From NCBI GenBank assembly GCA_016699265.1, contig CP064967.1:690001-722000 (forward strand): 32,000 nucleotides of DNA, given 5' to 3'. The notes beneath the pieces were generated by a model. It was given only the letters and a program-made list of their open reading frames with translations, searched no databases and was not told where the DNA came from. The position numbers were made by a program, and so were the translations under genes. This document shows positions 5,920 to 31,808 of this stretch, one piece after another (positions within the stretch are counted from its first letter, which is position 1; every line of letters starts with the position of its first letter). The DNA comes from Candidatus Saccharimonadota bacterium. GTDB lineage: Bacteria > Patescibacteriota > Microgenomatia > UBA1406 > GWC2-37-13.

Positions 5920-5997
5920 ATGATTAGTATAAAGTATTTAGTATATAGAACAGAGCCCAAATACTTTATACTTTATACCTAATACTAAATATTTTTT

Positions 5998-6780
5998 ATG
6001 AATATCTTTCATGCGCTTTTACTTGGAGTCGTTGAGGGCGTGACCGAGTTTTTACCCATCTCATCTACAGCACATCTTATTCTCACAAGTAAATTTTTGG
6101 GACTCGCTCAAACAGAGTTTCAAACGTTCTTTGAAGTCTTTATTCAATCGGGGGCAATACTAGCAGTAGTCTTTTTATACCTTCGATATGTCCTCGAACA
6201 TAAGAAAGCACTTATCAATATCATTTTGTCCTTTATTCCAACGGCAGTTGTCGGACTTGTCCTTCATAAAACAATTAAGACGGTTTTCTTCAACTCAAAC
6301 CCCCTTATCATCGCCTCAATGGCGGTTGTAGCGATACTATTTTTGATAGTTGAACACCGAATAAGAACTAAGAAATTAGAACTGAAGAAAAATCTAACTC
6401 AGATAACGAGTAAACAAGCAGTCCTCATCGGACTCATTCAGTCGCTTGCCGTTGTTCCAGGAGTTTCACGTGCGGGAATCGTTATGATCTTCATGATGAT
6501 GCTTGGATTTAAACGAGATGAATCAGCTAAGTATTCATTTTTGCTAGCTATGCCAACAATTATTGCTGCAAGCGCCCTCGATCTTTATCAGTCGAAGGAC
6601 ATTCTACTTACTTCCTCATCTATGACCTCGCTCCTTATCATCGGATTTGTAACTGCATTTATAACGGCTTATGTTTCCGTGAAATGGTTACTTAACTATT
6701 TACAGAATAATACACTTGTCGGCTTTGCCTATTACCGTCTTCTACTTGCTATAATAGTCGTTATAGCTCTAGGCCTATAA
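5998..6780 (+). CDS. uppP: Undecaprenyl-diphosphate phosphatase
   Basis: 260 aa, multi-pass membrane protein. VEGVTEFLPISSTAHL and PGVSRAG are the BacA/UppP signature motifs. Confidence 0.95.
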   Translation: MNIFHALLLGVVEGVTEFLPISSTAHLILTSKFLGLAQTEFQTFFEVFIQSGAILAVVFLYLRYVLEHKKALINIILSFIPTAVVGLVLHKTIKTVFFNSNPLIIASMAVVAILFLIVEHRIRTKKLELKKNLTQITSKQAVLIGLIQSLAVVPGVSRAGIVMIFMMMLGFKRDESAKYSFLLAMPTIIAASALDLYQSKDILLTSSSMTSLLIIGFVTAFITAYVSVKWLLNYLQNNTLVGFAYYRLLLAIIVVIALGL

Positions 6781-12067: not shown

Positions 12068-12494
12068 ATGATCTATATTTTTCTTGCCTCAATTTTATAC
12101 ACCGTAGGAATCATGTTTGGAGCCGCTGCCTCTCGCAGCGCTAACACTAATCTAGTAGCGGGTATCATGAATGCTGTTTCAGCACTTTTGCCAATTGCCC
12201 TCGTTATCCCAATTCTAAACGCCAAAACATTCACAAACTCGAAAATGGGAATCATCTACGCAGTTGTCGCAGGACTTCTCATAGCTCTTTTTACCATGGC
12301 GCTTGGTAAAAGTTTTGCAGAAAAATAAGGTCGCTATTGTTTCACCTATGGTTTTTGGTGGAGCAATATTTCTCTCAACAATTTTGGGATATGTAATATT
12401 TAAGGAACAGGTTTCTAGGTTTCAAGCAATCGGCCTTTTCTTTCTTGCGGTAGGTCTTGGTTTTGTTATTTACGCCCGATGGACTGGTAGATAA
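12068..12494 (+). pseudogene. Single-domain EamA/DMT-type small transporter split by a frameshift at an A5 run
   Basis: ORFs 12068..12328 (3 TM) and 12303..12494 (2 TM) together form one 5-TM EamA-like domain. Removing one A from the run at 12321-12325 joins them: ...ALGKSFAE|NKVAIVSPMVFGGAIF.... The second ORF has only a TTG start inside the first. Confidence 0.7.
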
Positions 12495-14752: not shown

Positions 14753-15958
14753 TTACTCGCTTCGAATCGCGTCTATTGGTGATAAATCAGCCGCTCCTTT
14801 TGCAGGGAATACGCCGAAGATTACTCCGATAGCCGATGAAATTCCAAGAGCCAACGCTACAGTTTGCCCGTCAACATAGGCGGGAAAGAAGCTCTGGACT
14901 GCAAAAATGATAAGGTAGGAGAGGGCGAGTCCCATTAGTCCTCCAAACAACGACAATATTACTGACTCGACCAAAAACTGAAATAGAATGTCATTTTTCC
15001 GTGCTCCGAGAGCTCGGCGGACCCCAATCTCCTTCGTCTTCTCTGTAACGGTTACATACATGATATTCATGATTCCTATCCCACCAACCACCAAAGAAAT
15101 GGCAGCAATTGCGACCAGCGCAATGTTCAAGGTACCAAAAATTTGATTCAAAGCATCTAAAATTTGGGTAGGCTCAAAGACGGAAAAATCATCTTCTTTG
15201 TAGCGACGAAGAAGAACTTCTTTAATATCCCCTTTAATACTGTCTATGCTCGTACCCGTCTTAAACTTAATTGCGAAAACAAGAAATTTCTTATCGGGAT
15301 TGAAGATATAGGCGCTCCTATAGGGAAGATAAACGAATGAGTCAAGATCAGGACCCCCAAATCCTCCACCTTTTGACTTGAGAACCCCAATAACCTTGAA
15401 CGAAGTTCCTTGAATTTTTATTGTATTGCCAACTGCATTCTCTGCCTTGCCGAAAAGCTTTTCTGCAAGTTTGGGACCAATGTCTACCACCTTCGATCGT
15501 TTCAGGACATCGGGTTTAGTAAACAGCTCACCATACTGGAGCTCCAGATTTAGTACGGGAAAAATATCTTCGTTGGTTGCATAGAGGTCTCCAAACTCTT
15601 TATTCTTCCCGTAGATTACCTCACTACTTGTAGTGAAAATAGGGGCAATATCTTCAACGACTTTAAGACGTTTAAGATTATTAAAGTCTTTTTCATCGAA
15701 TCGAATGGCTCCAACCGAAGACCCTCCAGTTCGAAACTGTCCGTTTCGAATTACAGTTCCAGGAACTATTCTTAAAGTGTTTGACCCAAAACTCTCAAAC
15801 TGCTGCTGAATGTATTTTTTTAGTCCAAGACCTGCTGCAGTTAATAGAACTACCGACATAACCCCAATTAAGATACCAAGAGATGTGAGGAAGGTCCTCC
15901 CTTTATTCCTAGAGAAGTTGAAAAGTGCCGTTTTTAAAAGGAATACGAAATACATCAT
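14753..15958 (-). CDS. ABC transporter permease, MacB/FtsX family
   Basis: N-terminal anchor ...SRNKGRTFLTSLGILIGV, a large periplasmic domain, then the FtsX 3-TM module with EIGVRRALGARKNDI. The start at 15958 is chosen. The ORF is open to 15997. Confidence 0.92.
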   Translation of the reverse strand: MMYFVFLLKTALFNFSRNKGRTFLTSLGILIGVMSVVLLTAAGLGLKKYIQQQFESFGSNTLRIVPGTVIRNGQFRTGGSSVGAIRFDEKDFNNLKRLKVVEDIAPIFTTSSEVIYGKNKEFGDLYATNEDIFPVLNLELQYGELFTKPDVLKRSKVVDIGPKLAEKLFGKAENAVGNTIKIQGTSFKVIGVLKSKGGGFGGPDLDSFVYLPYRSAYIFNPDKKFLVFAIKFKTGTSIDSIKGDIKEVLLRRYKEDDFSVFEPTQILDALNQIFGTLNIALVAIAAISLVVGGIGIMNIMYVTVTEKTKEIGVRRALGARKNDILFQFLVESVILSLFGGLMGLALSYLIIFAVQSFFPAYVDGQTVALALGISSAIGVIFGVFPAKGAADLSPIDAIRSE

Positions 15959-15977
15959 AGAACTTAAAATCAAATTT

Positions 15978-16646
15978 CTAAACGATCTTTCCATCAACTA
16001 TTCTTATCTGTCGTTTCGTTTTTGCTGCAATGTCCGGTTCGTGAGTGACTATCACAATCGTTATCTTGTCTTCCTTATTTAATTCTTTTAGGAGTTTCAT
16101 AATTTCGTCACCTGTCTTAGTATCGAGATTGCCGGTTGGCTCATCTGCCAAAATAAGACTTGGTTGCATAATGAGCGCTCGAGCAATAGCTACGCGTTGC
16201 TGCTGTCCTCCAGATATTTTATTAGGATACGACTTTGCTTTTTCCTTAATTCCAAATCTCTCGAGTAAATACATAGCCTTCTCCTCGGCTTTATATGTCA
16301 ATTTCTTTCTTGCATAGATTGATGGAAGCATTACGTTTTCAAGAACGGTAAGTTTATTGATGAGATTAAACTGTTGAAATACGAATCCTACATACTCATT
16401 ACGAAGGGTTGAGATCTCATCATCATCGAGCTTAGAAATATCTTGTCCATTTATTGAAACTTTTCCTGTCGATGGTTTGTCTAAAAGCCCGATAATGTGC
16501 ATGAGCGTTGACTTTCCACTACCGGAGGGGCCGATTATTGAGCAAAACTCGCCATCTTTTATCTGGACAGAAATATTACTTAGTGCGGTGAAGACAACCT
16601 CCTCATCGAGCTTATACTCTTTTGTAACATTCTCTATTTTAATCAT
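15978..16646 (-). CDS. ABC transporter ATP-binding protein (MacB/LolD-type)
   Basis: Walker [11 protein letters not shown]-loop, signature [15 protein letters not shown], Walker [14 protein letters not shown]-loop VTHE. The likely start is MIKIENV at 16646. The ORF is open to 16673. Confidence 0.95.
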
Positions 16647-17680
16647 AGACAACATCACCTTCTTGTAATCCATTTAGTATCACCGTTGCCGTGTCTATTT
16701 CTTCACCGACCTCCACCGTTGTTTTTACTTTCTTTTCTCCAACTTTTTTCATTACATATTTCTTGCCACTTTCTGATTTAATAAAGGTTGTTGGTACGCC
16801 AATAACACCAACCATCTTCTTAGTGATGAACTCAACGTCTCCCGTCATCCCTAAACGATATTTCAGTTGAGCGCTATCAGAACTATCGGGAGAGGTGCTA
16901 ATCTTAACTTCATATACCGTTCCTGTTTCATCTGATTTAGGAGTAAACGCAATGGACTGTATGGTAGCTGATGTGGTCTCGTCTGGAAAAGAATCGTAAC
17001 TAATTTGACCCTTCATTCCTTCGTACATTTTCACAACATCAGTTTGATCCACAGCTCCTGAGAAATAAAGAGTTTCTGGGTTTACAATTACGAACTCGGC
17101 TTGCGTAGGGGTTATATTAACACCAGCCTGCTTGGTGCCAACCGAAGTAACAACACCAGCGATAGGCGAAACCAGAGTTGAATAACGAAGGGAGATGTCC
17201 GACAGTTCAACATCTAGAACTGAGCTATTAAGATCGAACTGCACTTTTTATATGCATCGATCGTGTCCTGTCTCAGATATTTATCTGGAGATAGTGCATG
17301 CTCATCGGTATCCATTGCCGTGTTGTCAAATGTAAGCCTTTGTTTATCATAGGTAATAAGTTCTTTCTCTAGTTGTTTCTTTAACTGTCTCTGATCCAGC
17401 GATGCTATTGATTGATACTTTTTTACCACATCACCTTCTGTTACCCCTACCCATGCGAGACGACCAGATGTCTGGAAGCGAAGAGTTGCCTTCTCCTGAG
17501 CATCTACTGATCCCGAAAATGTCAATGACTCGCTTAGTGTCTGTCGTTTTACTTTATAGGTCAACTCCACAACGGTACTTTTTTTACCCACAGTCTGACC
17601 ATAAACAATCCAACCAACAACGAAAATAATTATGAGTATGATCCACCAGCGTTTTTAATAATATTAAGCAGTTTCTTCAT
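16639..17680 (-). pseudogene. MacA/HlyD-family periplasmic adaptor broken by two frameshifts at homopolymers
   Basis: The ATG at 17680 gives MKKLLNIIK and then terminates. Adding one base to the T5 run at 17652-17656 gives MKKLLNIIKKRWWIILIIIIFVVGWIVYGQTVGKKST..., which continues into ORF 17214..17591. Adding one base to the T5 run at 17245-17249 gives ...DAYKKVQFDLNSSV..., which joins ORF 16639..17244. Confidence 0.8.
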
Positions 17681-17738: not shown

Positions 17739-18869
17739 TCATAGGAACGGTGCCCAGTTACCCACCGGCATAGCATTTCCTTGCAGAAAGGTCCATGCGT
17801 AGAGATATACAGCGGGCACAATCAGTATAAACGAAATGACTGTCCTTTTTGAGGTTAAATATTTTTCGAACACGATGCATGTGATTGGCAACATTGGCAA
17901 AGCGTAACGCGATATGTCTCGATGTTGTACGAAAATTAAACTAAAGAAAAAGGTAAGCGAAAAGTAAAATAAAATCTGCATCTTATGTTTATATGTATAA
18001 ACCACAGTTAAAGCATAGATTGCAAAGGTGAGTAGAACATCTTCAAGCCAGTGAGTACCTACCCATTTTGCGCTAGCATTGAATGCTGCGTATGGATAAG
18101 GCATCGGTACAACGTAACCCGTGTGCCAATATGCAAAGAGGTCACCCATCTGCTGCTGATAGATAAGACAGACCGCAGCAAGCCCTGCAGGAATAAGGAA
18201 AAGCCATAACCATCCAGACTCAAATCGCTTCTCCTCCCTCATCCTTTGTACCGCTGAAAATCCATAAGCTGCAAGTAAAAGAATTCCTGGTAGCTTTGTC
18301 ATCGTCGCGAGTCCACCTACTAAACCAGCAAATACGTACTTTTTCTTTTCGAAGAAAAAAAGTGAGAGCAAAATGAGCAACATAAATAAACTCTCTGGAG
18401 AACCGATCGACCGCACAACTAAAAATCGGGGGAACATTAAAAATACGAATGTGAGGAGTAGGGGTTTAGTACTGAGTTTTTGAGATTGTACGAAGTAATA
18501 AAAAAACCAACCGAGCAGTACTGTAGAGAGAAGCGTTACAAACATCATCGATTTTACATAACCCAAACCATATGCAAATCCACGAATGAGCCCTGGAAAG
18601 AGAGGAAGATGTGCAGCAAAGTACTCGGGAGTAAGTCCCCCTTCAAGCCGTAGCGAGTTAATTGCTGATGGTAGATACCATGATTTAGCTGCTATCACAT
18701 ATAGGAGTCCATCAAAGTTACGATATATGAGCGAGGTATCGGTATTTGGAATATGCATACCGAGAAAGCCTAATTGTTGAACAAACGGCAACCATACTAC
18801 CATGCTCGAGATAAGGGTGAAAAGAAGAATATAGAGGTAGTTTTTATACGTCCTGAAAAACCACTGCAT
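17739..18869 (-). CDS. GT-C-fold membrane glycosyltransferase, PIG-V/DUF2029-like (putative mannosyltransferase)
   Basis: 376 aa with about 10 TM helices. NFDGLLYVIAAKSWY resembles the PIG-V-type WDxxxYxxIAxxGY loop. The family call is from memory. Confidence 0.75.
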   Translation of the reverse strand: MQWFFRTYKNYLYILLFTLISSMVVWLPFVQQLGFLGMHIPNTDTSLIYRNFDGLLYVIAAKSWYLPSAINSLRLEGGLTPEYFAAHLPLFPGLIRGFAYGLGYVKSMMFVTLLSTVLLGWFFYYFVQSQKLSTKPLLLTFVFLMFPRFLVVRSIGSPESLFMLLILLSLFFFEKKKYVFAGLVGGLATMTKLPGILLLAAYGFSAVQRMREEKRFESGWLWLFLIPAGLAAVCLIYQQQMGDLFAYWHTGYVVPMPYPYAAFNASAKWVGTHWLEDVLLTFAIYALTVVYTYKHKMQILFYFSLTFFFSLIFVQHRDISRYALPMLPITCIVFEKYLTSKRTVISFILIVPAVYLYAWTFLQGNAMPVGNWAPFL

Positions 18870-20397
18870 GATTTATTATACTATGGTAATGATGAAGAGG
18901 TTGTCAGCTCTATTTGGTGGAAAACTATGGATGATTGCGGTACTTATTTTAGTAGCTATCGGGGCCTTCTTGAGATTACACCTCATCTATGAAACAGCGA
19001 CCTTTTTGGGAGATCAGGGAAGAGATGCAATTGTTATGCGCAACATCGCAACCTTGAGAGATCTTCCTGCTCTTGGACCCATCACCTCAGTCGGAAGTAT
19101 CTATCTTGGTCCTCTTTACTACTACATGATGGCTCCTTGGCTCTGGCTCTCCATCTTTAATCCGATCGGCCCCGCGGTTGGTATTGCGCTCATTACATCA
19201 GCTGCACTTTTCCTCCAATACATAGCAGTCAAAGAAATGGTGAATAAACAAACCGCCTTACTCTCAGTCGCATTTGCAACTTTTTCATGGGTTTTGGTCG
19301 AGTATTCACGTTTCTCATGGAATCCGAATCTACTACCTCAAACAACTCTTTTTGTAGCATACACCCTCTATAAGATTGTGAAGACTAAAAAACTTAGATA
19401 CTTTATTCTTCATGGAATTTTACTATCTCTCGCTATTCAACTTCACTATTTGGCAGTCTTCTTACTTCCGGTCACTATAGTGGTCCTATTGTTTAATGAC
19501 ATCAATGACCTGCCTGCCGGCAAGCAGGAAAGAAAAGATCCTCTCCTCCTTCATATCGGTAATTCACTCACCCTTGGTGCGTCGTTCGTTCTCCCCCTTG
19601 CTCCATTCCTTCTCTTTGAGGTGATACATTCATTTCCCAATTTCAGAAGCATTCTTCATTTCTCATCCACCAACTCTGGATCAAGCAACACCCCATTTAA
19701 TAACGAACTCTTTACGTCCCTTCAGAACACAGTTCAGTTTGCGACACAGTATAACTTCACGGGTTGGTGGGTAATATTCATAGGATTATTACTATTCGTC
19801 GTATTTATATATACATTGAAAAAAGGAGAAAAAATTTCGTATCTGGTTGGATCACTCCTCGTAATGATTATTGGAGTATCCTTTTACCGAGGGCCAAAAT
19901 ATGCTCACTACGTCGGAGGAACATATCTTTTGCTATATGTCACCGCGAGCTATCTCCTTGTTAAACTCGGTAGATTCAATGCTTATCTTGGCGGACTGTT
20001 GATTGCCCTTACCTTAGGAGTCTTTCTCAATCTCAACGTTCAGAAGTACTACTTCCTACGCGAGAAGGACCACCAAAATCAGATCGATAAAGCTTACCAA
20101 ATCGCACTCACAATCATCTCGATGAAACCCACCGAGACCTTCACACTCACCTCGTCCCCAGACGCTTATGCCGACTATCCGTATCGTTACTTTCTTGATG
20201 TCCTAAACAAAAAACCTATCTCAAAAGAAGCGGACTCGTACTCACCTTCAAATAGTTTATTTGTTGTATGCGAGGCTCAGTGCAACCCAATGAGTGATCC
20301 TCAGTGGGCAATTGCACATTTCAATCCTAAAAAAATTGAGGCAACAAAGACTATTTCCGCCTACCCTTGGCTCAAGGTTTATAAACTGACCCGTTAG
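18868..20397 (+). CDS. GT-C-fold glycosyltransferase, ArnT/PMT_2 (GT39/GT83)-like
   Basis: 509 aa: a multi-pass N-terminal region with an early acidic loop (FLGDQGRDAIVM) and a soluble C-terminal domain. The probable true start is an ATG at 18883-18892 (MKRLSALF). Confidence 0.8.
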   Translation: MIYYTMVMMKRLSALFGGKLWMIAVLILVAIGAFLRLHLIYETATFLGDQGRDAIVMRNIATLRDLPALGPITSVGSIYLGPLYYYMMAPWLWLSIFNPIGPAVGIALITSAALFLQYIAVKEMVNKQTALLSVAFATFSWVLVEYSRFSWNPNLLPQTTLFVAYTLYKIVKTKKLRYFILHGILLSLAIQLHYLAVFLLPVTIVVLLFNDINDLPAGKQERKDPLLLHIGNSLTLGASFVLPLAPFLLFEVIHSFPNFRSILHFSSTNSGSSNTPFNNELFTSLQNTVQFATQYNFTGWWVIFIGLLLFVVFIYTLKKGEKISYLVGSLLVMIIGVSFYRGPKYAHYVGGTYLLLYVTASYLLVKLGRFNAYLGGLLIALTLGVFLNLNVQKYYFLREKDHQNQIDKAYQIALTIISMKPTETFTLTSSPDAYADYPYRYFLDVLNKKPISKEADSYSPSNSLFVVCEAQCNPMSDPQWAIAHFNPKKIEATKTISAYPWLKVYKLTR

Positions 20398-20489: not shown

Positions 20490-21239
20490 ATGCACGTAAC
20501 CCTTATTATTCCTTGCTATAACGAGGAGAAAAATATTCAAAAAGGAGTGTTAGATAGAATAGCAAACTATGTTCAAGATCATAAGCACTTCACGGAGGTT
20601 GTTATAGTTGATGACGGATCAACGGACTCAACCAAGGAAATTATCAAAAAAGAATATCTCCCCAAATTTAAGTTCTTCAGGTTGGTTGAAAATAATCATG
20701 AGGGAAAAGCGCGCGCTGTGATAGAAGGAATTAGACAATCTAAGGAACCGTTTGTAATGTTCACTGATATTGACCTCGCAACTCCGCTTGAAGAGTCTGA
20801 AAAACTCATAGCGCAGGCGGAAAAAGGATTCGATATTGTGATAGGATCACGTAACTCAACTCGCGAAGGTGCTCCGATTCTTCGCAAGGTAATGGCGGTA
20901 GGATTTATCGTAATTCGCAACCTCGCCCTCGGTCTTCACAAAATCCGAGACACCCAGTGTGGCTTTAAGCTCTTCAACCGGGATGTGGCACTAGCAATTA
21001 TTGATTGCATTAGACTATTCGACAGACAGAAAACGGTTACGGGCTCCTCGGTATCAGCAGCATTCGATCTCGAGTTTCTCTTTCTAGCGTCTAAAATGAA
21101 AAAAAGAATTATGGAGGTCCCGGTGATATGGCGTCATGTTGAGACAAAAAATGTTACCTTCTTCCACGACGTTTTAGAAACGCTTCGAGGAATTGCAGTC
21201 ATTATGTACCATAACGTAAGAGGAGACTATAACAATTAG
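20490..21239 (+). CDS. GT2 polyprenyl-phosphate hexose synthase (Alg5/Dpm1/GtrB-like)
   Basis: LIIPCYNEEKNI ... VVIVDDGSTDST ... GKARAV ... FTDIDLATP ... DTQCGFKLF are the signature blocks of Alg5/GtrB-type polyprenol-phosphate glycosyltransferases. Confidence 0.9.
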   Translation: MHVTLIIPCYNEEKNIQKGVLDRIANYVQDHKHFTEVVIVDDGSTDSTKEIIKKEYLPKFKFFRLVENNHEGKARAVIEGIRQSKEPFVMFTDIDLATPLEESEKLIAQAEKGFDIVIGSRNSTREGAPILRKVMAVGFIVIRNLALGLHKIRDTQCGFKLFNRDVALAIIDCIRLFDRQKTVTGSSVSAAFDLEFLFLASKMKKRIMEVPVIWRHVETKNVTFFHDVLETLRGIAVIMYHNVRGDYNN

Positions 21240-21333: not shown

Positions 21334-22905
21334 ATAAAAATTAAAAACTTCAAATTAAAAATTCAATCTTATTGGCCATTAATACTCATACTTTCGGTAG
21401 TCGGTTTTCTTTTGACCTTTAGGCTTGGTCGTGATTTGTTACTGGACTGGGACGAATGTATTTATGCAGGCTATGCAATCAGCATGAAGATGGGTAGTTC
21501 GGCGCTTCATAATACGTGGAATACATTAGGTCTGTTTGAAAAATCTCCGTTTTATTCATGGATCTTGCAGCTGCCACTACTTTTTCAGAAAACTGAATTT
21601 AATCTTCGACTTCCAACAGTTCTCGCAAGTTTAACGCTTCTTGGATCGATCTACGTTTTTTGTCAGACCTATTTCTCAAAGAGAATAGCGGTAATCTCGA
21701 CGCTTCTCATGCTCACATTCGAATCGTATGTCATTTATTCTACAAAGGTCTCAACCGACGTCCTCTTTTCACTGTTTATATTTTCTGGTTTTTGGACCTG
21801 GGTATCGTCTGCAAATGGTAAAGGAAAAAGGTCGAAATTACTCGTATGGATGAGCGGAGTTTTTTTTGCGTTTGCGCTGATGGTCAAGGGATTAGGTGTT
21901 GCTCCTTATATGGGAACACTGTTCCTTTCAATTTTACTCCAACCAAAGAAAAATCGATTCTTCGATTTTTTCAAAATGCTCACCTCATTTATTGTGATTG
22001 GACTCCCATGGCATCTTCTGATGTACCTCACGCATCAAAAGGAATTTATACAGATGTATTTAGTCGATAATTTTTATAAACGTTCAACCTTTCCTGTAGA
22101 GTTTCACCGAGAGCGAATTTGGTTTTATCTTGACCTTCTTTACAAGGAATCATTTCCGTGGATCTTTGCACTATTCATAGCGCCTTTATCGGTCATCCTG
22201 AATGCAGTGAAGGATCTAGCAAAGCGAACCAAGAAAGGATCTGGATTTCTTGCATTCACCCTGCCTACCGGCAGATAGTTCGGAATGACAGTTCGGGGAC
22301 AAATTGAGAAAAATAGTCTCACTTATACAGTTTTCTTATTCGTGCTCCTACCTCTCATATCTATTTCACGAGTCCAAACTCGAATTGCATGGTATGTGAT
22401 TCCACTACTCCCGTACCTTTCCATTTTTCTCGCGATTTGCCTGAATCTGGTCTTTGATTTTATGAAGAAAAAAAATAAAGTACTAAGTAATGTACTTTTT
22501 GTTCTCTTATTAATTTTAATCATCTTGGATGTAGGAAAATTAATCCTGAACGAAACACGATTTACGCAAAGTAAACCAACAATTGATTCAAGATATGAGG
22601 TAATTTTGCAGTCCTCAAAACTACAAGGCAGTGTTCTCAACTACCTCGTTCCGTTTGGCGAACGACAGGCCAAGGTTATACTCCCTCTAGATGAGACGCT
22701 TACGAACACTTGGTACTACGGGGGCAATGCCTGCGCCGTCTACTACAGTAATAAAAAAGTAAATTACTTCTATGAGATAGAGGCATTTGAGAAAGCTTTT
22801 ACCCAAAATGATGGCCTCTTCCTCATCTCAAACCAAGACGCAAAATACGCAGAAGATAAGGTGATTTTATTTAAAAATGCCGACTATACCTTGTTTACTT
22901 TCTAG
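21334..22905 (+). pseudogene. GT-C (ArnT/PMT_2-like) paralogue with an in-frame TAG and no canonical start for its first TM helix
   Basis: ORFs 21412..22278 and 22285..22905 are in the same frame, separated only by TAG at 22276-22278 (...LPTGR*FGMTVRGQ...). Together they are about 495 aa, like the paralogues. The frame is open from 21334 and encodes the expected TM1 (YWPLILILSVVGFLLTFRLG...DWDECIYAGYA), but there is no ATG, GTG or TTG before 21412. Confidence 0.7.
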
Positions 22906-23494
22906 CCAATCTTCCTCGAAGACTAAGTGTGGCGATCAAAATATTTATCAGAAATAAATATACGGGGAATAGTAGATTTGCTACATCGAACTTCGTCGTA
23001 GACAAAACTCCAACAAATGCGGCCGTAGCAAAGATAAAAAATGCAGAAGGCGTCTCTGACATTGGATCGCTGAAAGACTTTTTAATAGTTGGCATAGAAA
23101 CAATTAGATCTGCAATTACAGATAGGACCAGAGCCGTTAGTGGATTTTTAGTTATCATCCATAACGCGATAGCCAAAAAACCGAAGATCAGACTTAATCT
23201 ATCAAACAATGTGTACTTTGTTACTCCGTACTTTAATGACAACAAAAAAGTAATTCCAGTTCCAAGTAAGTCTCCTATTAACAACAAAACGGAAAAACTG
23301 GCCCCTTCTTTTATCTGTGCAGCGGCTCCAATGCTCAATAATATTGTCCAACCAAGCCAAGAAACTGAGTTTGGCCTGGTTTTACCGTTCAAAATATCTC
23401 GAATATATGGGACGATCGCGAAGAATATGAGAAGTCCGGACAGAAGTCCGAGCACTGCATGCCAGTCGTACATTCCTAATACTACCAAATTCAA
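22895..23494 (-). CDS. 7-TM membrane protein with two PQ-loop-like motifs (paralogue 1)
   Basis: 199 aa with 3+1+3 TM helices. The motifs VPYIRDILNGKTRPNSVSW (after TM1) and MPTIKKSFSDPMSETPSAF (after TM5) are shared with the neighbouring paralogue. Confidence 0.8.
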   Translation of the reverse strand: MNLVVLGMYDWHAVLGLLSGLLIFFAIVPYIRDILNGKTRPNSVSWLGWTILLSIGAAAQIKEGASFSVLLLIGDLLGTGITFLLSLKYGVTKYTLFDRLSLIFGFLAIALWMITKNPLTALVLSVIADLIVSMPTIKKSFSDPMSETPSAFFIFATAAFVGVLSTTKFDVANLLFPVYLFLINILIATLSLRGRLARK

Positions 23495-23526
23495 CCAGAC
23501 AAGGGCCTTACAGCACTTTAATTATT

Positions 23527-23572
23527 TTTCCGAGTTCTCAGAATCGCGATTCCCGATTTTATGTTGGGAAAA
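23527..23572 (-). repeat. Double-hairpin intergenic repeat, copy D (inverted orientation, diverged)
   Basis: The reverse complement reads ttttcccaacataaaatcgggaatcgcgattctgagaactcggaaa. This aligns with copy B (tttcccgatttacgatcgggatcccgattctgaggcaatcgggg). It lies between the two PQ-loop-like genes. Confidence 0.65.
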
Positions 23573-23586
23573 TAATAGAAACAAAC

Positions 23587-24159
23587 TTATTTCTTTCTTC
23601 CCTTTATCAAAACCCCTACAAGTATAAGGTTGGCTAAAAATACAGCTGACGGGTAGAGCGCAGTGATTAGGGAAATCTTTTCTAGAGCAAATATGGATAT
23701 AAAATGTTTGATTGCCGCAAAATTATGAGTCGAAAGGGTTTCCTCGTAAGGCTTCTTTAAGCTTTTTCTAATCGTGGGATAAAACGCAGCAACATCAATA
23801 AATGTTACGAGAATGATCGAAAGTAAAGCGTTCCTCACAATTATGAACAGGAATGTGGCGCCAACAACTCCGGCCAACATGACTTTATCACTCCTCGTGA
23901 TATCTTTCGTGCCAAACTTAAAAGACAAGGCGAGTATTAACAAGCAGAGTATGGCGGTAACACCGGTGGTCCAGGCACCTGCACCAGCTCCGTCGCTCAT
24001 CTGAGAGAAGAAGGCCATAAATGTGAGAGGTGTCCAGATCACCCATGTGTAAAGATGCGGCTTAGTTTTCTTTTTTACGATATCGGATATATACGGAAAT
24101 AAACTAAAAATACTTATTACGACAGCGGTGATTCCGAGTATTTCCTTGATATTAGGCAT
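23587..24159 (-). CDS. 7-TM membrane protein with two PQ-loop-like motifs (paralogue 2)
   Basis: 190 aa. FPYISDIVKKKTKPHLYTW and YPTIRKSLKKPYEETLSTH occupy positions equivalent to the motifs in 22895..23494. Confidence 0.8.
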   Translation of the reverse strand: MPNIKEILGITAVVISIFSLFPYISDIVKKKTKPHLYTWVIWTPLTFMAFFSQMSDGAGAGAWTTGVTAILCLLILALSFKFGTKDITRSDKVMLAGVVGATFLFIIVRNALLSIILVTFIDVAAFYPTIRKSLKKPYEETLSTHNFAAIKHFISIFALEKISLITALYPSAVFLANLILVGVLIKGRKK

Positions 24160-24234
24160 AGTTGTAGACCGAATGAAGAGTTAAAACCGATCCCTCTTGA
24201 GAGTTGGACATTGAAGTATTATATAATAATTGTG

Positions 24235-25755
24235 ATGTTTGACATATCTGGCTTTGTCAATTGGTTCCGAAAAAACTTTTCAAAGCGCGATCTTTTTTAT
24301 ACTGCCTTACTACTCGTCACTTATCTCGCAACTCGCCTCATAAATCTTGATAAGTTTCCGATTTTCACCGATGAGGGCATCTATATTCACTGGTCCAAGA
24401 TTGCTTGGAAGGATGCGGCGTGGCGCTTTATTTCTCTAACTGATGGGAAACAACCGCTACACACCTGGGGAATGATTCCATTTCTCAAGATATTTTCACC
24501 CAACCTTCTGTTAGGTGGCCGAATGTTTTCTATACTCTCAGGACTGATCGCGCTCAAAGGAGTTTTTTCTCTCTCCTACTATCTCTGGGGTAAAAAAACA
24601 GCTTTTATAGCCTCACTGTTCTACATCTTCACTCCGATGTTTCTATTTTATGACAGAATGGCGCTTGCCGATTCAGCTGTTAACGCAGGATTTATCTGGA
24701 TACTATTTGGGTCGATTCTTCTTATAAGAACGCTGAGAATGGATGTAGCTCTCGCGTTTGGCCTTGCTGCAGGTACAGCCATGCTTACTAAATCTTCCTC
24801 ACAGATGTTTGTGGCGCTCAGTGGACTCGCACCTGTACTCGCTTTCAAGAAAAAGTCCTTCATCAAAAATTCTTTCAGTTTCTATGTACTTTTCGTTTTT
24901 GCCTATGTCCTAGCGCTGGTCATTTACAACGTACAAAGACTCTCTCCTTATCTTCAGTATGTCGATCAAAAAAATGGCACTTTTGTTCTCACATTCAAAG
25001 AGTTCTTCGCAGCGCCATTCTCTCTGGTGATAAGCAATCTACCCCTAATTCCGTGGTATGTGTTTTCTGAAATGGGCTACGCATTAGGAGTTATCGGAGT
25101 GGTGGGATTATTTTTCTTGATCAAAAAAGATTGGAGATTGGGTCTCTATCTTGCAGCATGGCTTCTATTCCCCTATGTTGCTATTTCATTTTTTGCCAAG
25201 GTAATCTTTCCCCGATATCTTATATTTTTTGCTACGCTCCTAACTTTGACTGCAGCTTATTTAATCAGTAGTACAAAAAATAAGACAGTCAAAGTTCTCT
25301 GTTTCACGTTCTACGCTCTAAGTGTCGGTTACTTCAACTATGCAATATTATTCGATAATCAGAAAATTCCGTTCCCTCCTGTTGATCGCGGACAGTACAT
25401 CGAAAGTGTGAACGCAGGATATGGAATCAAAGATCTAATTCAGTATGCTCGTGAAAAATCTATGGATAAACCCGTTATTCTACTCGCCGAGGGAAACTTT
25501 GGCGTCGTAGGCGACATGTTAGAGTCATCGATCGGAATAGGTGAAAAAATTAGCATCAGAGGATTCTGGCCCCTAAATGCAAAGGACCTCTACGACAATC
25601 AGAAAGAACTTGCGAATAACCATGTGTATGTGGTTTATTCCCACAGAAAGCTTTCCGAGATCGATTCCTCATGGCCATTACGCCTCATTAAGGAATATAG
25701 GAGACCGTTTGGAGACTCAAGCTTTACCCTTCTTGAACTTACCAGCGCTAATTAG
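24235..25755 (+). CDS. GT-C-fold glycosyltransferase, ArnT/PMT_2 (GT39/GT83)-like
   Basis: TM1 followed by RLINLDKFPIFTDEGIYIHWSKIA, the DE-containing first periplasmic loop typical of ArnT/PMT. About 11 TM helices and a soluble C-terminal domain. The ATG at 24235 is preferred over the TTG at 24211. Confidence 0.85.
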   Translation: MFDISGFVNWFRKNFSKRDLFYTALLLVTYLATRLINLDKFPIFTDEGIYIHWSKIAWKDAAWRFISLTDGKQPLHTWGMIPFLKIFSPNLLLGGRMFSILSGLIALKGVFSLSYYLWGKKTAFIASLFYIFTPMFLFYDRMALADSAVNAGFIWILFGSILLIRTLRMDVALAFGLAAGTAMLTKSSSQMFVALSGLAPVLAFKKKSFIKNSFSFYVLFVFAYVLALVIYNVQRLSPYLQYVDQKNGTFVLTFKEFFAAPFSLVISNLPLIPWYVFSEMGYALGVIGVVGLFFLIKKDWRLGLYLAAWLLFPYVAISFFAKVIFPRYLIFFATLLTLTAAYLISSTKNKTVKVLCFTFYALSVGYFNYAILFDNQKIPFPPVDRGQYIESVNAGYGIKDLIQYAREKSMDKPVILLAEGNFGVVGDMLESSIGIGEKISIRGFWPLNAKDLYDNQKELANNHVYVVYSHRKLSEIDSSWPLRLIKEYRRPFGDSSFTLLELTSAN

Positions 25756-27486
25756 TACGACGACTCCAATCACCGATACGATCGATGTTGCATTTGCCCA
25801 GGTTCTGATCGGAGTATCCTCAAAACGAAACTCAAGACTATGCTCGCCCTTTGGCACCTGAACCGTGATAAGTTTAAATCTATTTCTATCGTTGATAGGA
25901 AGTACGCCACCATCAATCCTTCCAGTCCACCCGGGAAAGTGAAAGGTATTGAGTTGAAACGTGCTCAATCTTTTTGCATTTAATAAAAATACTTTTTTGT
26001 TAAAGCTATTCTCGACGATCTGAACAGACGCTCGCCCCTTGATCACTTTGTAAGGATTTTTTGGAACCTGATATTTTGATATATCAAAGATACTTGTATC
26101 ATACTGAGACTTTCTCAGGGGTACTCCTCTGGGACTAAACTCAAACGAACTTGAACTTACATTCCATGCGATCTCGTTAAATGATGTTAATTCACTATCT
26201 TTTTTATACACATAATTTTCTGGTTTAAAGTATTTTTGATACTGAAGAATTGTTCCGGTAATGACAATTAATGATAAAAACATTATTACTCTATCATTCC
26301 CGACCCGATCGGGAATCCAATTTATTGGGTTTCTGGATCCCCGCTTGCGCGAGGATGACAATACCTCATGTATATATTCGAAACTGTAGCCACCAAGCAA
26401 AGAAATAAATATTCCCGCAAAGGTTAAAAACCTCCATGGAAACTGCAGGTACTGAAGTGGTTGAATAGCGTCCCAAATGATTCGCGAATACTCGGTCGTC
26501 ATGAAAAGACTGAATAATAACATTGCAACGTAGACCGCATATCGTATAGCGTATTTCGTATCAATTTTTTTCTTCAATATTAAGAATAAGAACAAAATGA
26601 GTGATAGAACGGCCAGACCAATTTGTATTTTTCCAAGTTGAAAACTCATACCATCCGTGAGTCCAAGCCCAGAGCCACCATATCCCCACTGAGAAAACCA
26701 GAGTTGAGACGGCTGGATAAAGTGAATTGAGTATGAAGCAAGTTCCTTTGTGAGAATCGAGTCTACTAGCGTAAACTTTCTTTCAAGCATTGAAGGAAGC
26801 CAATAAAAAGCTGACAGCAGCGCTCCCAACAAACCTCCTAGAGCAACGTAAACTACATACTTAAACCTTTTTGAGACATAGAAAGAAGAGCCTAGAACAT
26901 AAATCGCGCAGAAAAAAATAAAAGGAAAAGCCACAAAGACATGACTCATAATGAGTAGGGCCACAATTACACCAAAGAACACAGCGCGTCTGACCGTTGC
27001 TTTTTCTCGTAAGAGTTCTAAACTCAAAAATGCAAAAGGCAGAAGGTTCATCCCATAAAATTCGGCAAATGCCCCTCGTACATAAACCAAAACAGCATGG
27101 TATGTAAAAAAAGTAAACAAAGTTGCGGTTACTAAACCTACAACCTTTGATCTTATAACCTTCAAACCTAATAGATACATTCCCACTGCCCCCAACAAAT
27201 ATCCAGAGATTATCATTGCCTTAACCGACCAAATATACGACGCGCCGATAAGCCTGTACATTTCCGAAATATAATAAATAAACGGAGGGTAAAAATTAAA
27301 GAGCGGGTACCCAAAGTTGAATCCAAGTACGTCGACCCATCGAGGAAACAAATATCCCTGATGGATCCCTTGATCTAGTAAAAATAGCCTTGCGATATGC
27401 TGAAAGTCGTGCACTGAAAAGTACCATGGATTTAACAAACTTACAAATGAGGGAATTGCTATAATCAGAAGTAGCAGGAAGTACAT
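25717..27486 (-). CDS. Large GT-C-like membrane protein (YfhO/ArnT-like architecture)
   Basis: 589 aa. HDFQHIARLFLLDQGIHQGYLFPRWVDVLGFNFGYPLFNFYPPFIYY is an N-terminal loop typical of YfhO-like GT-C proteins (from memory). It has many TM helices and a C-terminal beta-rich domain plus a TM anchor. Confidence 0.8.
   Translation of the reverse strand: MYFLLLLIIAIPSFVSLLNPWYFSVHDFQHIARLFLLDQGIHQGYLFPRWVDVLGFNFGYPLFNFYPPFIYYISEMYRLIGASYIWSVKAMIISGYLLGAVGMYLLGLKVIRSKVVGLVTATLFTFFTYHAVLVYVRGAFAEFYGMNLLPFAFLSLELLREKATVRRAVFFGVIVALLIMSHVFVAFPFIFFCAIYVLGSSFYVSKRFKYVVYVALGGLLGALLSAFYWLPSMLERKFTLVDSILTKELASYSIHFIQPSQLWFSQWGYGGSGLGLTDGMSFQLGKIQIGLAVLSLILFLFLILKKKIDTKYAIRYAVYVAMLLFSLFMTTEYSRIIWDAIQPLQYLQFPWRFLTFAGIFISLLGGYSFEYIHEVLSSSRKRGSRNPINWIPDRVGNDRVIMFLSLIVITGTILQYQKYFKPENYVYKKDSELTSFNEIAWNVSSSSFEFSPRGVPLRKSQYDTSIFDISKYQVPKNPYKVIKGRASVQIVENSFNKKVFLLNAKRLSTFQLNTFHFPGWTGRIDGGVLPINDRNRFKLITVQVPKGEHSLEFRFEDTPIRTWANATSIVSVIGVVVLISAGKFKKGKA
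26297..26318 (+). repeat. Copy E of the first hairpin of the repeat family, inside the CDS 25717..27486
   Basis: ttcccgacccgatcgggaatcc aligns with ttcccgatttacgatcgggatcc of copy B. It contains the perfect palindrome cccgatcggg. On the minus strand it is translated as ...NWIPDRVGNDR... in a hydrophilic loop. Confidence 0.6.
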
Positions 27487-27500
27487 TTCAGAACATTATA

Positions 27501-28952
27501 ATGGATACACTAAGTCAAGAGGAACTAAAGAGAAGAGGATTTATTAGCACCATAAGTCTATTTTTTCAGAGTGGTTATTCTGCGGTTCTTGGACTTATTG
27601 CCAATCTTATCGTTACGATTCTTCTCAGTCCACATGTCTTTGGGATCTATATAACAGTCCTGTCGATAATAGCCCTCTTCAACTACTTCTCAGACTTTGG
27701 ACTTGCCGCTTCACTCATACAGAAAAAGGAGATGACGGAAGAGGACATTAAAACCACCTTTACAATTCAACAGACTTTGATAGTTACCTTAATCACTATC
27801 GGTTTTTTTGCCACTACGTTCGTACGAAAGTTCTACAATCTTCCTCAGGAAGGCATGTATCTCTACTGGTCACTACTATTTGCTTTTTTCATCTCGTCTC
27901 TTAAAACTATCCCATCCGTTTTCCTTGAAAGACATATTAAATTTAACAAGGTCGTATATGTACAGGTAGTTGAGAATACCTTATTTTATGCAGCAGTTTC
28001 GATACTCGCAATAATGGGTTTCGGCTTGATGAGTTTCACTTACGCAGTGATGATCCGCGCCGTATCAGGACTAATCCTCATCTATAGAATATCACCGTGG
28101 ACCCCTCAGTTTGGATTCAACAAACAATCTTTAAAAATACTGCTCTCATTTGGTGTTCCATTTCAGGCTACCTCTTTTCTAGCCTTATTTAAGGATGATC
28201 TCATAGTGCTCTTCCTTGGAAAAATCCTCGGGTTTGAGCTATTAGGTTACGTCGGTTGGGCGAAGAAATGGGCAGATGCACCTCTCAGGGTATTTATGGA
28301 CAATGTAGGAAGAGTCTTGTTCCCCGTAATGTCTCGTGTTCAGGATAATAAAGAAAGACTTCGAAGCATCAGCCAAAAACTACTTTACTATCAGACTATG
28401 CTACTAGCGCCCGTTATGATCGGTATGATGTTTGCCTTACCATTACTCGTTACTTTGATACCTCAGTACACTAAATGGCAACCCGCCATACCTCTCTTTT
28501 ATATTTTTGCGCTATCATCACTCATTGTTTCTTTTTCTGCCCCATTCATGGCGCTGTTTAATGCTTTGGGAAAAGTGAAAATAACCTTCACATTTATGCT
28601 TCTTATAACCATAGTGACATGGATTCTCACTCCGATTCTTACTAAGAGGTATCAAGAATACGGATTCCCCATTACTCATTTAATTGTGTCATGTACCTTG
28701 GGACTTATTTTATTAAAGGTGCGCTCAACACTTGATATGAAAATTCTTCCATTCATCTTTAAACCACTACTATCAAGTGCAGGAATGGCAGTAATATTGT
28801 TCGGAGTTCAAAAACTATTTCCGGAAGCGAGTATTCCTCTTTTTATTATCATCTCCACTACGGGTGCTGTTTCGTACTTCGCGATTATGACCTATATATT
28901 CAATACAAATATTTATAGGGAACTCGTACAGTTTAAAAATAACAATGAATGA
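27501..28952 (+). CDS. Wzx-type oligosaccharide/polysaccharide flippase (MOP superfamily)
   Basis: 483 aa with about 12-14 TM helices. The N-terminal pattern GYSAVLGLIANLIVTILLSPHVFGIY...FSDFGLAASLIQ is typical of the polysaccharide biosynthesis protein family. Confidence 0.85.
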   Translation: MDTLSQEELKRRGFISTISLFFQSGYSAVLGLIANLIVTILLSPHVFGIYITVLSIIALFNYFSDFGLAASLIQKKEMTEEDIKTTFTIQQTLIVTLITIGFFATTFVRKFYNLPQEGMYLYWSLLFAFFISSLKTIPSVFLERHIKFNKVVYVQVVENTLFYAAVSILAIMGFGLMSFTYAVMIRAVSGLILIYRISPWTPQFGFNKQSLKILLSFGVPFQATSFLALFKDDLIVLFLGKILGFELLGYVGWAKKWADAPLRVFMDNVGRVLFPVMSRVQDNKERLRSISQKLLYYQTMLLAPVMIGMMFALPLLVTLIPQYTKWQPAIPLFYIFALSSLIVSFSAPFMALFNALGKVKITFTFMLLITIVTWILTPILTKRYQEYGFPITHLIVSCTLGLILLKVRSTLDMKILPFIFKPLLSSAGMAVILFGVQKLFPEASIPLFIIISTTGAVSYFAIMTYIFNTNIYRELVQFKNNNE

Positions 28953-30119: not shown

Positions 30120-30694
30120 TTAAAAAGAGATATAGCCGAGATCTTGGAGCTTGAGTAGAATGGATTTTAGATCGGTATTCTTAATGTAGAGATCTCCTTT
30201 TAGGTCGACTCCTGTTGGATTTCTCAATACCTCGACACCTTTGACCTTCTCGAGTCTAGTGTATTTATCTCCTGCCCAGTCAAGAAAAAACTTTCCAAAC
30301 TCAAGAGCTGGAGTCTGAAAAATAGACGCACTTTGCTTAAATATAAATATTCTAGGCGGATGTTCACTAAACTGCTTCAAGTATGAGTCTCGTAACTCGT
30401 CCCCTTCTCTAAACTGAGGCAGTAGTGATGGATGTTTTCCAACCCATACACCCTTTTTACATAGAAAGATTCATTAGGTTCATACGGCCCAATGAAGTAA
30501 TAATCTCCTTGATCGAGAACCTCATCAATAAAAGTTGCAGCGGGCCCCGCATTATGAATGGTCGGAAGTTTTTGAGTGTAGATCTTATATGCGGTGTTGA
30601 AGGAATTAACCAGGAGAAATATTCCCGTGAAAATAAAGAAAATTAATGTGATTAAGCGCACAACTCTACGCAAATCACTCAACCAGTCGTCCAT
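30120..30694 (-). pseudogene. Membrane-anchored extracytoplasmic protein split by a frameshift at a homopolymer
   Basis: ATG at 30694 preceded by AGAGG. MDDWLSDLRRVVRLITLIFFIFTGIFLLV is an N-terminal anchor. The downstream ORF 30120..30380 starts only at a TTG, and its frame is open about 30 codons further upstream. Adding one base to the T5 run at 30454-30458 joins them: ...NESFYVKKGVWVGKHPSLLPQFREGDELRDSYLKQFSEHPP.... Confidence 0.6.
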
Positions 30695-31808
30695 TGCCTC
30701 TACGGAGCCTTTTGCGGGGTGGGTTTGATTTTGCTTTGGAAAATAACCAAAGAACAAAGACAGAGGATATTAGGCCAAGCACCAAAAACATCGAGGATTG
30801 GTAGTCTGTCTCCTTAAAATCCTGAAGTCCACTTCGTGGAGCTGAAAAAGACAACACCAGAAAGTACATAAGTCCCAAAACCAATTTTTGCAAACAGAAA
30901 AAGAACAGAGTTAGTGTGGAAATACCTGCTAAGGTACCTATCGGAAGATACAGATCGAGATACTTAATCTTGGTTAGAAGTGGTAGATAACCTGCGGAAA
31001 AGTTTGAGATTATTGTCCATGAAAACTTAAATGGATTAAAGTGAGGACCTCTTACATAGTTTGGAATACTGATGTAGTACTTAGTGTTGTAAACAAAGTT
31101 CGCAAAATAAAAATCGTTCCAAGTTTTTGTAAGAAAAAGGTTGAGAACAAAAATACCGTAAGGCAGTATCGACCACGCAATGAGACTCAGCAATTTTTTA
31201 TCAACTTTAAACTTATAGAGATATGCATGCCAAAGATACAATACGGCTCCCATATATAGGAATGTAGCCGAGGACATAATCATGCAAAAAACAAAAAACG
31301 AGGAAACAAATAGACTTCTACCCAGCGACTTATTATCGAATGTCTCTGCTAAAAGAATCCAGAATGCGATGCTGAAAAAGAATACTGCAAGACTATCGGC
31401 CAAAAATAAATGGAACCAAAAATATAAAGAGGCAGCGGGATACAAAACAAAAAAAGCAAGAAATGGCTTTACCAAAGAAGGATGCTTTTTATAGATCCAT
31501 CGTCCGAGTAACGCAAACCCACCGAATTGGGCAACCGCCCATAAAACTCTCGTAAGAACAAAGGACTTACCAGAAAGAAATAAAAAAATAGAAGAGATAT
31601 ACCATGCTAGAGGAAGATGATGATCCCAAAAATCTCTATACGGTAACCCACCATTGAGAATGACCTTTCCTCCGAGGAGATTTATATATTCGTCTGGGTA
31701 GTCTACGTATCTACTATTTAGCAGGAATAGACCAAAGATAATGCCCAGAAGCAAAATCGAGGTGTAATTTTTCCGTATTAGTGAACTTAGTTTCTCTAGT
31801 AAGACCAT
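30675..31808 (-). CDS. GT-C-like multi-pass membrane glycosyltransferase (DUF2029/PMT_2-like)
   Basis: 377 aa with about 10 TM helices. The early loop DEYINLLGGKVILNGGLPYRDFWDHHLPLAWY resembles the catalytic first loop of GT-C enzymes. Confidence 0.75.
   Translation of the reverse strand: MVLLEKLSSLIRKNYTSILLLGIIFGLFLLNSRYVDYPDEYINLLGGKVILNGGLPYRDFWDHHLPLAWYISSIFLFLSGKSFVLTRVLWAVAQFGGFALLGRWIYKKHPSLVKPFLAFFVLYPAASLYFWFHLFLADSLAVFFFSIAFWILLAETFDNKSLGRSLFVSSFFVFCMIMSSATFLYMGAVLYLWHAYLYKFKVDKKLLSLIAWSILPYGIFVLNLFLTKTWNDFYFANFVYNTKYYISIPNYVRGPHFNPFKFSWTIISNFSAGYLPLLTKIKYLDLYLPIGTLAGISTLTLFFFCLQKLVLGLMYFLVLSFSAPRSGLQDFKETDYQSSMFLVLGLISSVFVLWLFSKAKSNPPRKRLRRGNGRLVE

Follow-up and report, generated by a model that had tools for sequence, protein, structure and literature searches.

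We found that two tandem genes in a stretch of 32,000 nucleotides from a Candidatus Saccharimonadota bacterium (GenBank assembly GCA_016699265.1, contig CP064967.1, positions 690,001 to 722,000; hereafter the window, to which coordinates refer unless a compared locus is named) encode small paralogous membrane proteins, B and A, which are predicted to share the seven-helix fold of SWEET, PQ-loop and KDEL receptor (KDELR) proteins and belong to a large unnamed family. The sequence-only reading of this stretch had noticed the pair among glycosyltransferase genes, where a GtrA- or ArnEF-type flippase would be expected, and had proposed that it translocates polyprenyl-phosphate-hexose as a bacterial analogue of MPDU1. 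The membrane crossing of polyprenyl- and dolichyl-phosphate monosaccharides is an unresolved question; biochemical proof that GtrA is a flippase has never been given, and the mechanism of MPDU1 is unknown (PMC9169118). We report that the function of the family as a whole is probably independent of glycosyltransferase family 2 (GT2) and GT-C genes, and that the evidence speaks for a gene arrangement particular to one lineage rather than for a general replacement of GtrA. Our own reading, held tentatively and with slightly less than even confidence, is that A and B would act as alternating-access carriers of a small polar substrate.

Both genes lie on the minus strand and form a separate two-gene unit, opposite in strand to its neighbours. 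Paralogue B (23587-24159, minus) begins with ATG and encodes a seven-helix protein of 190 aa, the conserved-type family member, and paralogue A (22895-23494, minus), a divergent lineage-specific copy, is an open reading frame (ORF) of 199 aa with a TTG start. Of ten close orthologues of A, nine have a length of 192 aa, so that the true start of A is probably the ATG at 23473 (M8), which would give it the same 192 aa. The two proteins are 28% identical over 195 residues (BLASTP, E 4e-23) and are real paralogues, as had been proposed. The motif that the sequence-only reading saw twice in each protein, after the first and fifth transmembrane helices (TM1 and TM5), is present in all four places: in B as FPYISDIVKKKTKPHLYTW (24043-24099, minus), covering the cytoplasmic end of TM1 and loop 1-2, and YPTIRKSLKKPYEE (23740-23781, minus), covering the cytoplasmic end of TM5 and loop 5-6, and in A as VPYIRDILNGKTRPNSVSW (23357-23413, minus) and MPTIKKSFSDPMSE (23054-23095, minus), both read in ORF A. 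A scan for promoters and terminators returned sites no more numerous than in shuffled sequence. We rejected a plus-strand ORF of 232 aa (22929-23627), spanning all of A and longer than it, as a shadow ORF without homologue support; it could mislead gene callers.

Next, we investigated the fold. AlphaFold2 modelled B with high confidence (pLDDT 94.6, pTM 0.88), with helices at residues 4-28, 36-55, 60-82, 89-108, 111-135, 142-157 and 164-189, and gave A (pLDDT 91.3) seven helices as in B, so that the 3+1+3 layout first read from the sequence is seen in confident models of both proteins. When searched against the PDB with Foldseek, both models matched cystinosin, AtSWEET13 and 7-8 KDELR entries with probabilities of 0.91-1.0 and TM-scores of 0.53-0.63. 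Cystinosin 8dke was the best structural match of both A and B (TM-score 0.62-0.63, probability 1.0), AtSWEET13 was matched by both at probability 1.0 (TM-score 0.54-0.55), and the KDELR entries (6i6b and others) made up 7-8 of the top ten matches with TM-scores of 0.53-0.63. Further matches were confined to one model each, with cystinosin 7zkz found by A only and OsSWEET2b (5cth) by B only and more weakly (probability 0.66, TM-score 0.43). Beyond the cystinosin, SWEET and KDELR entries the probability fell to 0.18 or less, among PnuC, rhodopsins and G protein-coupled receptors. The arrangement that defines the PQ-loop/SWEET/KDELR structural superfamily (Pfam clan MtN3-like; TOG superfamily), in which an inversion-linker helix connects one bundle of three helices to another, is present in the AlphaFold2 models and in full-length Foldseek matches, and on these models A and B are predicted to have the 3+1+3 SWEET/PQ-loop/KDELR fold.

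The models also allow a topology to be assigned. With 16 lysine and arginine residues on the inferred inside against 3 outside, the orientation is N-out/C-in, and both motif loops are cytoplasmic. The P-Y and P-T motifs sit in the cytoplasmic halves of TM1 and TM5. Upon comparing the two halves of the family alignment, motifs 1 and 2 came into register (P22 with P128; fPYIsDI against fPTIRKS), with weak support (hhalign E 0.007, probability 5%). Among 145 diverse representatives of the family, the second of these prolines, P128, is conserved in 97% and the first, P22, in 62%.

The relationship to PQ-loop and SWEET proteins that had been proposed stood at the level of structure and did not stand at the level of sequence. 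Pfam and NCBIfam scans of A and B gave nothing relevant, neither protein matched PF04193 (PQ-loop) at E <= 10, PF03083 (MtN3/SWEET) or the GtrA profile PF04138, and none of 50 family members matched any of these three at E <= 1, their Pfam scan yielding scattered chance matches only. A search of the family profile against all PDB sequences, SWEET and SemiSWEET chains included, found no chain at E <= 10. Homology to MPDU1 was not detected in the sequence, hhalign giving a probability of 0.3% between the family alignment and a shallow MPDU1 alignment (16 vertebrate sequences, 65-100% identity). The hinge dipeptide is P-Y or P-T and not the P-Q of PF04193. The fold assignment is thus one that the models, rather than membership in a sequence family, uphold.

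SemiSWEETs are the known prokaryotic representatives of this fold. A and B resemble SWEET and SemiSWEET proteins (PF03083; 5xpd, 5cth) in their seven helices arranged 3+1+3, the N-out/C-in orientation and a proline hinge in TM1 and TM5; they differ in the hinge itself (PY/PT and not PQ), in the KTKPH and KPYEET cytoplasmic loops, which are specific to the family, and in having no PF03083 match. The PQ-loop or LCT group (cystinosin, PQLC2, MPDU1, CLPTM1L; PF04193) has in CLPTM1L a demonstrated glycolipid scramblase and in MPDU1 a protein genetically required for the use of dolichyl-phosphate-mannose and dolichyl-phosphate-glucose (PMC9169118). Within this group cystinosin is the closest structure, whereas A and B have the glutamine replaced by tyrosine or threonine, are much shorter than cystinosin, lack its lumenal domain and are prokaryotic. 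The spacing from P22 to K31-T32 in motif 1 equals what we take to be the spacing from PQ to KS in cystinosin. The KDEL receptor matches in structure but is a eukaryotic cargo receptor without sequence similarity to A and B, and we know of no comparable role in prokaryotes. PnuC vitamin transporters (4qtn) are prokaryotic carriers of 3+1+3 type, like A and B in layout, and an importer role would suit nutrient-scavenging host lineages (the candidate phyla radiation (CPR), DPANN, Micavibrio); however, PnuC is a poor structural match (probability 0.08-0.18, TM-score 0.26-0.36), no Pfam match was obtained, and no NAD or other riboswitch was found upstream of the family gene at 12 loci. Prokaryotic seven-helix PQ-loop proteins have been described, with their function unknown (Saudek 2012, PMC3281891). 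In the literature searched, no paper gave prokaryotic seven-helix PQ-loop proteins a role with lipid-linked sugars, and nothing relevant was found on a bacterial PQ-loop or LAB_N-type flippase of undecaprenyl-phosphate sugars.

A word-index search returned 130 homologues of B, nearly all of 188-205 aa and unnamed, and an exhaustive profile search extended these to 5,500 clusters (50% identity) at E <= 1e-3, of which 1,081 lie at E <= 1e-30. No Pfam model covers the family, although the JGI annotation of a single member, P0080, reads 'uncharacterized protein with PQ loop repeat'. What is new here is this large family without a Pfam model and its unusually conserved cytoplasmic loop motifs; the fold itself is known. 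A genome scan gave 493 family loci, and we analysed the 80 closest non-redundant ones (L-numbers below denote loci compared), a list that was ranked by similarity to the query and is biased towards its relatives. Within these 80, the hosts are mostly CPR bacteria (Saccharibacteria, Microgenomates-type, Paceibacteria), DPANN-type archaea, Micavibrio, Bdellovibrionales and Chloroflexota, and the family is concentrated in reduced-genome symbionts (CPR, DPANN), in which membrane transport is poorly understood. No phage homologues of the family were found.

Upon examining the 145 representatives, we observed near-invariant residues at Y23, P34, H35, W39, Q53, G59, G61, D91, W105, P128, T129, K132, P137, E140 and A158. 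Most of them fall within the motifs PYIxDIxxGKTKPH after TM1, where Y23, P34, H35 and W39 are kept in at least 92% of representatives, and PTIRKSxxKPYEET after TM5, where the same holds for P128, T129, K132, P137 and E140. B retains every family-invariant residue, and A carries the replacements H35N, G59S, G61S and W63L at near-invariant sites. A has about ten close orthologues, beyond which identity is at most 49%, and in neighbour-joining analysis the B sequences form a monophyletic clade and those of A a long-branched one, a pattern that points to B as the conserved-type copy and to A as a lineage-specific derivative. Tandem copies are rare, being present in the window, L010 and L061, with three copies in L004. 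The three full-length copies of L004 (7932-9755), only about 50% similar to one another, stand beside a polysaccharide cluster (Bac_transf, DUF4012, GT4, GT2, NTP_transferase) on a contig of 345 kb.

We then examined the neighbours of family genes, treating as independent the 76 loci outside the window's own lineage. No neighbour cluster is present in more than 7 of the 80 loci, a Pfam scan of 140 immediate neighbours showed no dominant family (EamA with 4 and Glycos_transf_2 with 3 being the highest), and the family is without any conserved gene partner. Among the independent loci, a GT2 gene lies within 200 bp of the family gene in 3/76 and within 3 kb in 5/76, and a GT-C gene within 3 kb in 1/76. 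Up to 1.5 kb from the family gene, GT2 genes account for 2.1% of ORFs, and at distances above 3 kb for 0.4-0.9% (5/242 against 3/494), a small difference of very few genes that carries no significance test. The independently adjacent GT2s are TuaG/WcaA-, rhamnosyltransferase- and MftF-like, none of them GtrB-type, and the members associated with glycosyltransferases are scattered in the neighbour-joining analysis, their nearest relatives usually lacking the association. Other sampled neighbourhoods comprise Crp/PfkB/Zn-ABC genes, purine biosynthesis, MFS and FMN-binding genes, and a cyanobacterial-type signalling region. Conserved linkage with both GT2 and GT-C genes occurs only inside a narrow lineage made up of the window, L009, L010, L088 and L089. 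A D-2-hydroxyacid dehydrogenase gene was considered as a partner and rejected as too rare, lying within 1.2 kb in 5/80 loci, a frequency equal to that of GT2. At one such locus, L010 (3319-5416), the dehydrogenase gene (NCBIfam 1e-65) stands between two family copies as an operon, A', dehydrogenase, B, with a 4-nt overlap on each side.

When reversing the comparison, we took orthologues of the DTQCGFK-type GT2 of the window (43-99% identity) and collected 80 metagenomic loci with such an orthologue at their centre. PMT_2-type GT-C genes are present in 69/80 of these islands, which share the order GT87-like, GT-C, GT2, GT-C, slot, GT-C, PTPS_related, Wzx, with MacB/HlyD, GT4 and UppP nearby. 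A family gene within 10 kb was found in 2/80: L092, which is the window's own organism at 99.7-99.8% nucleotide identity, and L169, where two unrelated genes separate the GT2 from a divergent family copy 1.6 kb upstream. The conserved linkage to GT2 and GT-C genes in related genomes, on which the sequence-only reading had staked its proposal, fails in the forward direction (3/76 for adjacent GT2, 1/76 for GT-C) as well as in reverse (2/80). The island architecture is widespread and the pair stands within it only in a narrow lineage, which advises caution in inferring function from a single window.

Particularly informative was the slot that separates the second GT-C gene from the third. At least 9 sister islands have there a lone opposite-strand gene for a full-length GtrB of 308-323 aa (E 3.6e-84 to Synechocystis sll0501 over the full length, 1e-52 to ArnC); GtrB occupies the slot at 9042-9995 in L088 and 9127-10056 in L089, and also in L114, L123, L095, L100 and L135. 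In L088 and L089, gtrB is followed on the same strand by B, with a 5-nt gap or an overlap, and then by A, the B orthologues being 54% and 63% identical to that of the window, respectively. Unlike the shadow ORF of the window, the second family copy of L088 is a true gene on the opposite strand (10674-11270, minus), and it is extremely divergent. The slot of L010 holds its A', dehydrogenase and B genes, and that of the window holds B-A only, without gtrB, leaving 51 bp (24160-24210) between B and the next GT-C gene. The window lineage has lost or moved gtrB and kept the B-A pair. On the simplest reading of these gene orders, family genes would have been captured once next to gtrB in the ancestor of the narrow lineage and later rearranged; such a capture, as one evolutionary event, suggests functional coupling and falls short of conserved linkage.

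The gene order of L088 and L089 places the pair in the position that gtrA takes in gtrABC clusters, beside gtrB and GT-C genes. GtrA proteins (PF04138) have about 120-150 aa and four helices, in contrast to the seven helices and 190-199 aa of A and B, which have no PF04138 similarity and are linked to gtrB in a single narrow lineage only. A bioinformatic study (PMC7176098) has claimed homology between GtrA and the second of the repeats in bacterial proteins of the SWEET family. A GtrA-like small hydrophobic gene is not common in the 80 islands, and, as the sequence-only reading had noted for the stretch, PF04138 has no match among the scanned ORFs of the 32-kb window.

If A and B are carriers of a small polar substrate, as we tentatively propose by analogy with the characterised members of the fold (SemiSWEET/SWEET, cystinosin), the helix kinks at P-Y and P-T would serve as hinges, and the inner gate would be formed by the charged loops on the cytoplasmic side. 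B would be the working, conserved-type copy, and A a fast-evolving duplicate which, because it has lost H35 and the GxG turn, may have an altered specificity or act as an accessory partner. The placement among GT-C genes would go back to the single capture beside gtrB in the ancestor of the narrow lineage, with gtrB later lost from the window genome, and from that capture it would follow that the substrate in the window lineage is plausibly related to glycan synthesis. Several observations weigh against the carrier reading. The fold also contains the non-carrier KDEL receptor and the lipid scramblase CLPTM1L (PMC9169118), so that carriage of a small solute is not established by the fold alone; the structural matches are moderate (TM-score 0.43-0.63, root-mean-square deviation 5-7 Å), with Foldseek E-values of only about 1e-2. 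Rfam scans of 12 loci, those in which the gap upstream of the family gene is longest, returned no riboswitches, only tRNAs and RNase P, and the fusions among the top 150 representatives, solely to C-terminal DUF2066 or SUKH (SMI1/KNR4) domains, are rare and uninformative. Finally, the conserved basic cytoplasmic loops and the sister gtrB-B-A operon would fit a phosphate-bearing lipid substrate equally well.

Such a substrate is what the sequence-only reading proposed, in that B, with or without A, would translocate the polyprenyl-phosphate-hexose made by GT2 enzymes of GtrB/Alg5 type outward for the GT-C transferases, in the role of GtrA, ArnEF or GtcA and as a prokaryotic analogue of MPDU1. 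We consider this unlikely. The pair does have GT-C genes on either side and a DPMS/ArnC-like GT2 at a distance of 1.7 kb, with a full-length GtrB directly upstream of B on the same strand in L088 and L089 and with island synteny maintained down to 54% identity, and family genes adjoin glycan genes independently, if at scattered loci: L045 (a family-GT2-Wzx-GT-C operon), L067, L084, L004 (its Bac_transf cluster) and L169. No GtrA was found in the window and no GtrA-like gene is common to the 80 islands, and the PQ-loop-family protein CLPTM1L scrambles glucosaminyl phosphatidylinositol (GlcN-PI) in vitro (PMC9169118); the conserved cytoplasmic loops, rich in lysine, arginine and histidine, could bind a phosphate head group. 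Set against these points are the low counts of the forward test, the absence of GtrB-type enzymes among the independently adjacent GT2s, the scattering of GT-associated members in the tree, and the 78/80 islands with the same GT2, at least 9 of them with gtrB, that have no family gene within 10 kb. Nor do MPDU1, PF04193 and GtrA show sequence or profile similarity to the family; the window itself has lost gtrB, its island already contains a Wzx-type flippase gene, and the mechanism of MPDU1 is itself unresolved (PMC9169118). The hexose role is unsupported family-wide and keeps a local hint in the gtrB-B-A order of L088 and L089. A wider form of the idea, which we regard as rather unlikely, makes the family the missing translocase of polyprenyl-phosphate monosaccharides, or of polyprenyl phosphate, that feeds GT-C enzymes in organisms without GtrA, usually encoded apart and captured as gtrB-B-A in one lineage; if true, the function proposed for MPDU1 would have its counterpart in prokaryotes, and a second branch of the PQ-loop fold, next to CLPTM1L, would be known to translocate lipids. 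A prokaryotic protein that has the MPDU1/CLPTM1L fold, is small and confidently modelled, and is encoded directly after gtrB in some genomes would be an easy object for scramblase assays.

It would seem improbable, in turn, that the family translocates the free carrier lipid, recycling polyprenyl phosphate like DedA/UptA or DUF368/PopT, or is a general lipid scramblase. A housekeeping role of this kind would explain why the family gene usually stands alone, and it agrees with the wide distribution without fixed neighbours, with the conserved basic residues at the cytoplasmic membrane interface, with the scramblase precedent of CLPTM1L, experimentally shown to be a glycolipid scramblase in the same fold (PMC9169118), and with the conservation of UppP/BacA near the islands, at 17 sister loci and at 5998-6780 of the window. 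In the window, however, UppP is 17 kb distant from the pair, family members are also present in DPANN archaea and in contexts of cyanobacterial type, whose carrier-lipid chemistry differs, and tandem paralogues with diverged invariant residues are unexpected for a generic scramblase. Very improbable in our view is a non-transporting role, as a receptor, a regulator or a membrane anchor of the 249-aa GT2, in the way DPM2 and DPM3 serve DPM1. KDEL receptors are non-transporters of the same fold and the window GT2 has no membrane helices, but most family members have no GT2 neighbour, and 78/80 islands with the same helix-less GT2 have no family member nearby, on which ground we rejected the anchor role.

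The glycosylation context that was read from the sequence is present, with an Alg5/DPMS/ArnC-like GT2 and PMT_2-type GT-C genes on both sides. The GT2 (20490-21239, plus; 249 aa; PF00535, 8e-26) is of the polyprenyl-phosphate sugar synthase type with a DTQCGFK motif; its best PDB matches are PfDPMS 5mlz (3.5e-16), ArnC and GtrB sll0501, and its best NCBIfam matches, PgfS, ArnC and a dolichyl-phosphate-hexose transferase, are all under the curated cut-offs. It lacks C-terminal membrane helices, in keeping with its 249 aa against the 308-323 aa of GtrB. One PMT_2-type GT-C gene precedes it (18868-20397, plus; Pfam) and another follows it (21412-22905, plus; Pfam PMT_2, 5e-14), the latter convergent with A and overlapping its 3' end by 11 nt. 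An in-frame TAG at 22276-22278 interrupts this second GT-C gene, whose L009 orthologue is intact at 492 aa; at the same codon the 99.8%-identical contig L092 has CAG (Gln), and the TAG may be either a real nonsense mutation in a decaying island or an assembly or sequencing error. The third PMT_2-type GT-C gene (24211-25755, plus; PMT_2, 9e-07) is divergent from B across the 51-bp gap, and its orthologues (GTC3) border the same slot in the sister islands.

Further along the island lie a gene for a large PTPS_related membrane protein (25717-27486, minus), which is conserved among the islands, and a gene for a polysaccharide flippase of Wzx/MOP type (Polysacc_synt_3; 27501-28952, plus; Pfam 1.9e-48), conserved in 19 sister islands and a rival flippase within the same island. 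This gene was missed by the sequence-only reading, as was a frameshifted gene for a small membrane protein with a single EamA domain (12068-12494, plus), broken in the window into ORFs of 86 aa and 63 aa. The EamA-type gene is intact in L092 (1571-1996), where it encodes a very hydrophobic protein of 141 aa with a weak full-length Pfam match (E 1e-3, below the cut-off); with an architecture resembling ArnE and ArnF, it is a possible small flippase candidate, 8 kb from the island. A MacB-type exporter is encoded at 14753-17591 (minus) by genes for an FtsX/MacB_PCD permease, an ABC ATPase and an HlyD-like adaptor, and this exporter, together with the GT4 and UppP/BacA genes (4810-6780), borders the island in many sister loci (17-29 of 80). 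Since these genes are conserved alongside, the conserved unit is larger than the GT2/GT-C core.

Two side observations concern family genes elsewhere. Four of the 12 loci covered by the Rfam scans (L063 9805-9878, L049 1510-1583, L004 7893-7963, L051 6069-6182) have a tRNA gene immediately before the family gene, and the long gaps are thus due to tRNA genes that occupy them. The fusion proteins are P0179 and P0192 (579-590 aa) and P0199 (329 aa), and P0192 may hold two stretches of the family domain. At the far end of the window, 30377-31808 (minus) encodes a polytopic membrane protein of 377 aa and a protein of 126 aa, neither with a Pfam match at E <= 0.01; the syntenic counterpart of the 377-aa protein in L088 and L089 is annotated as MptA_B_family (GT-C).

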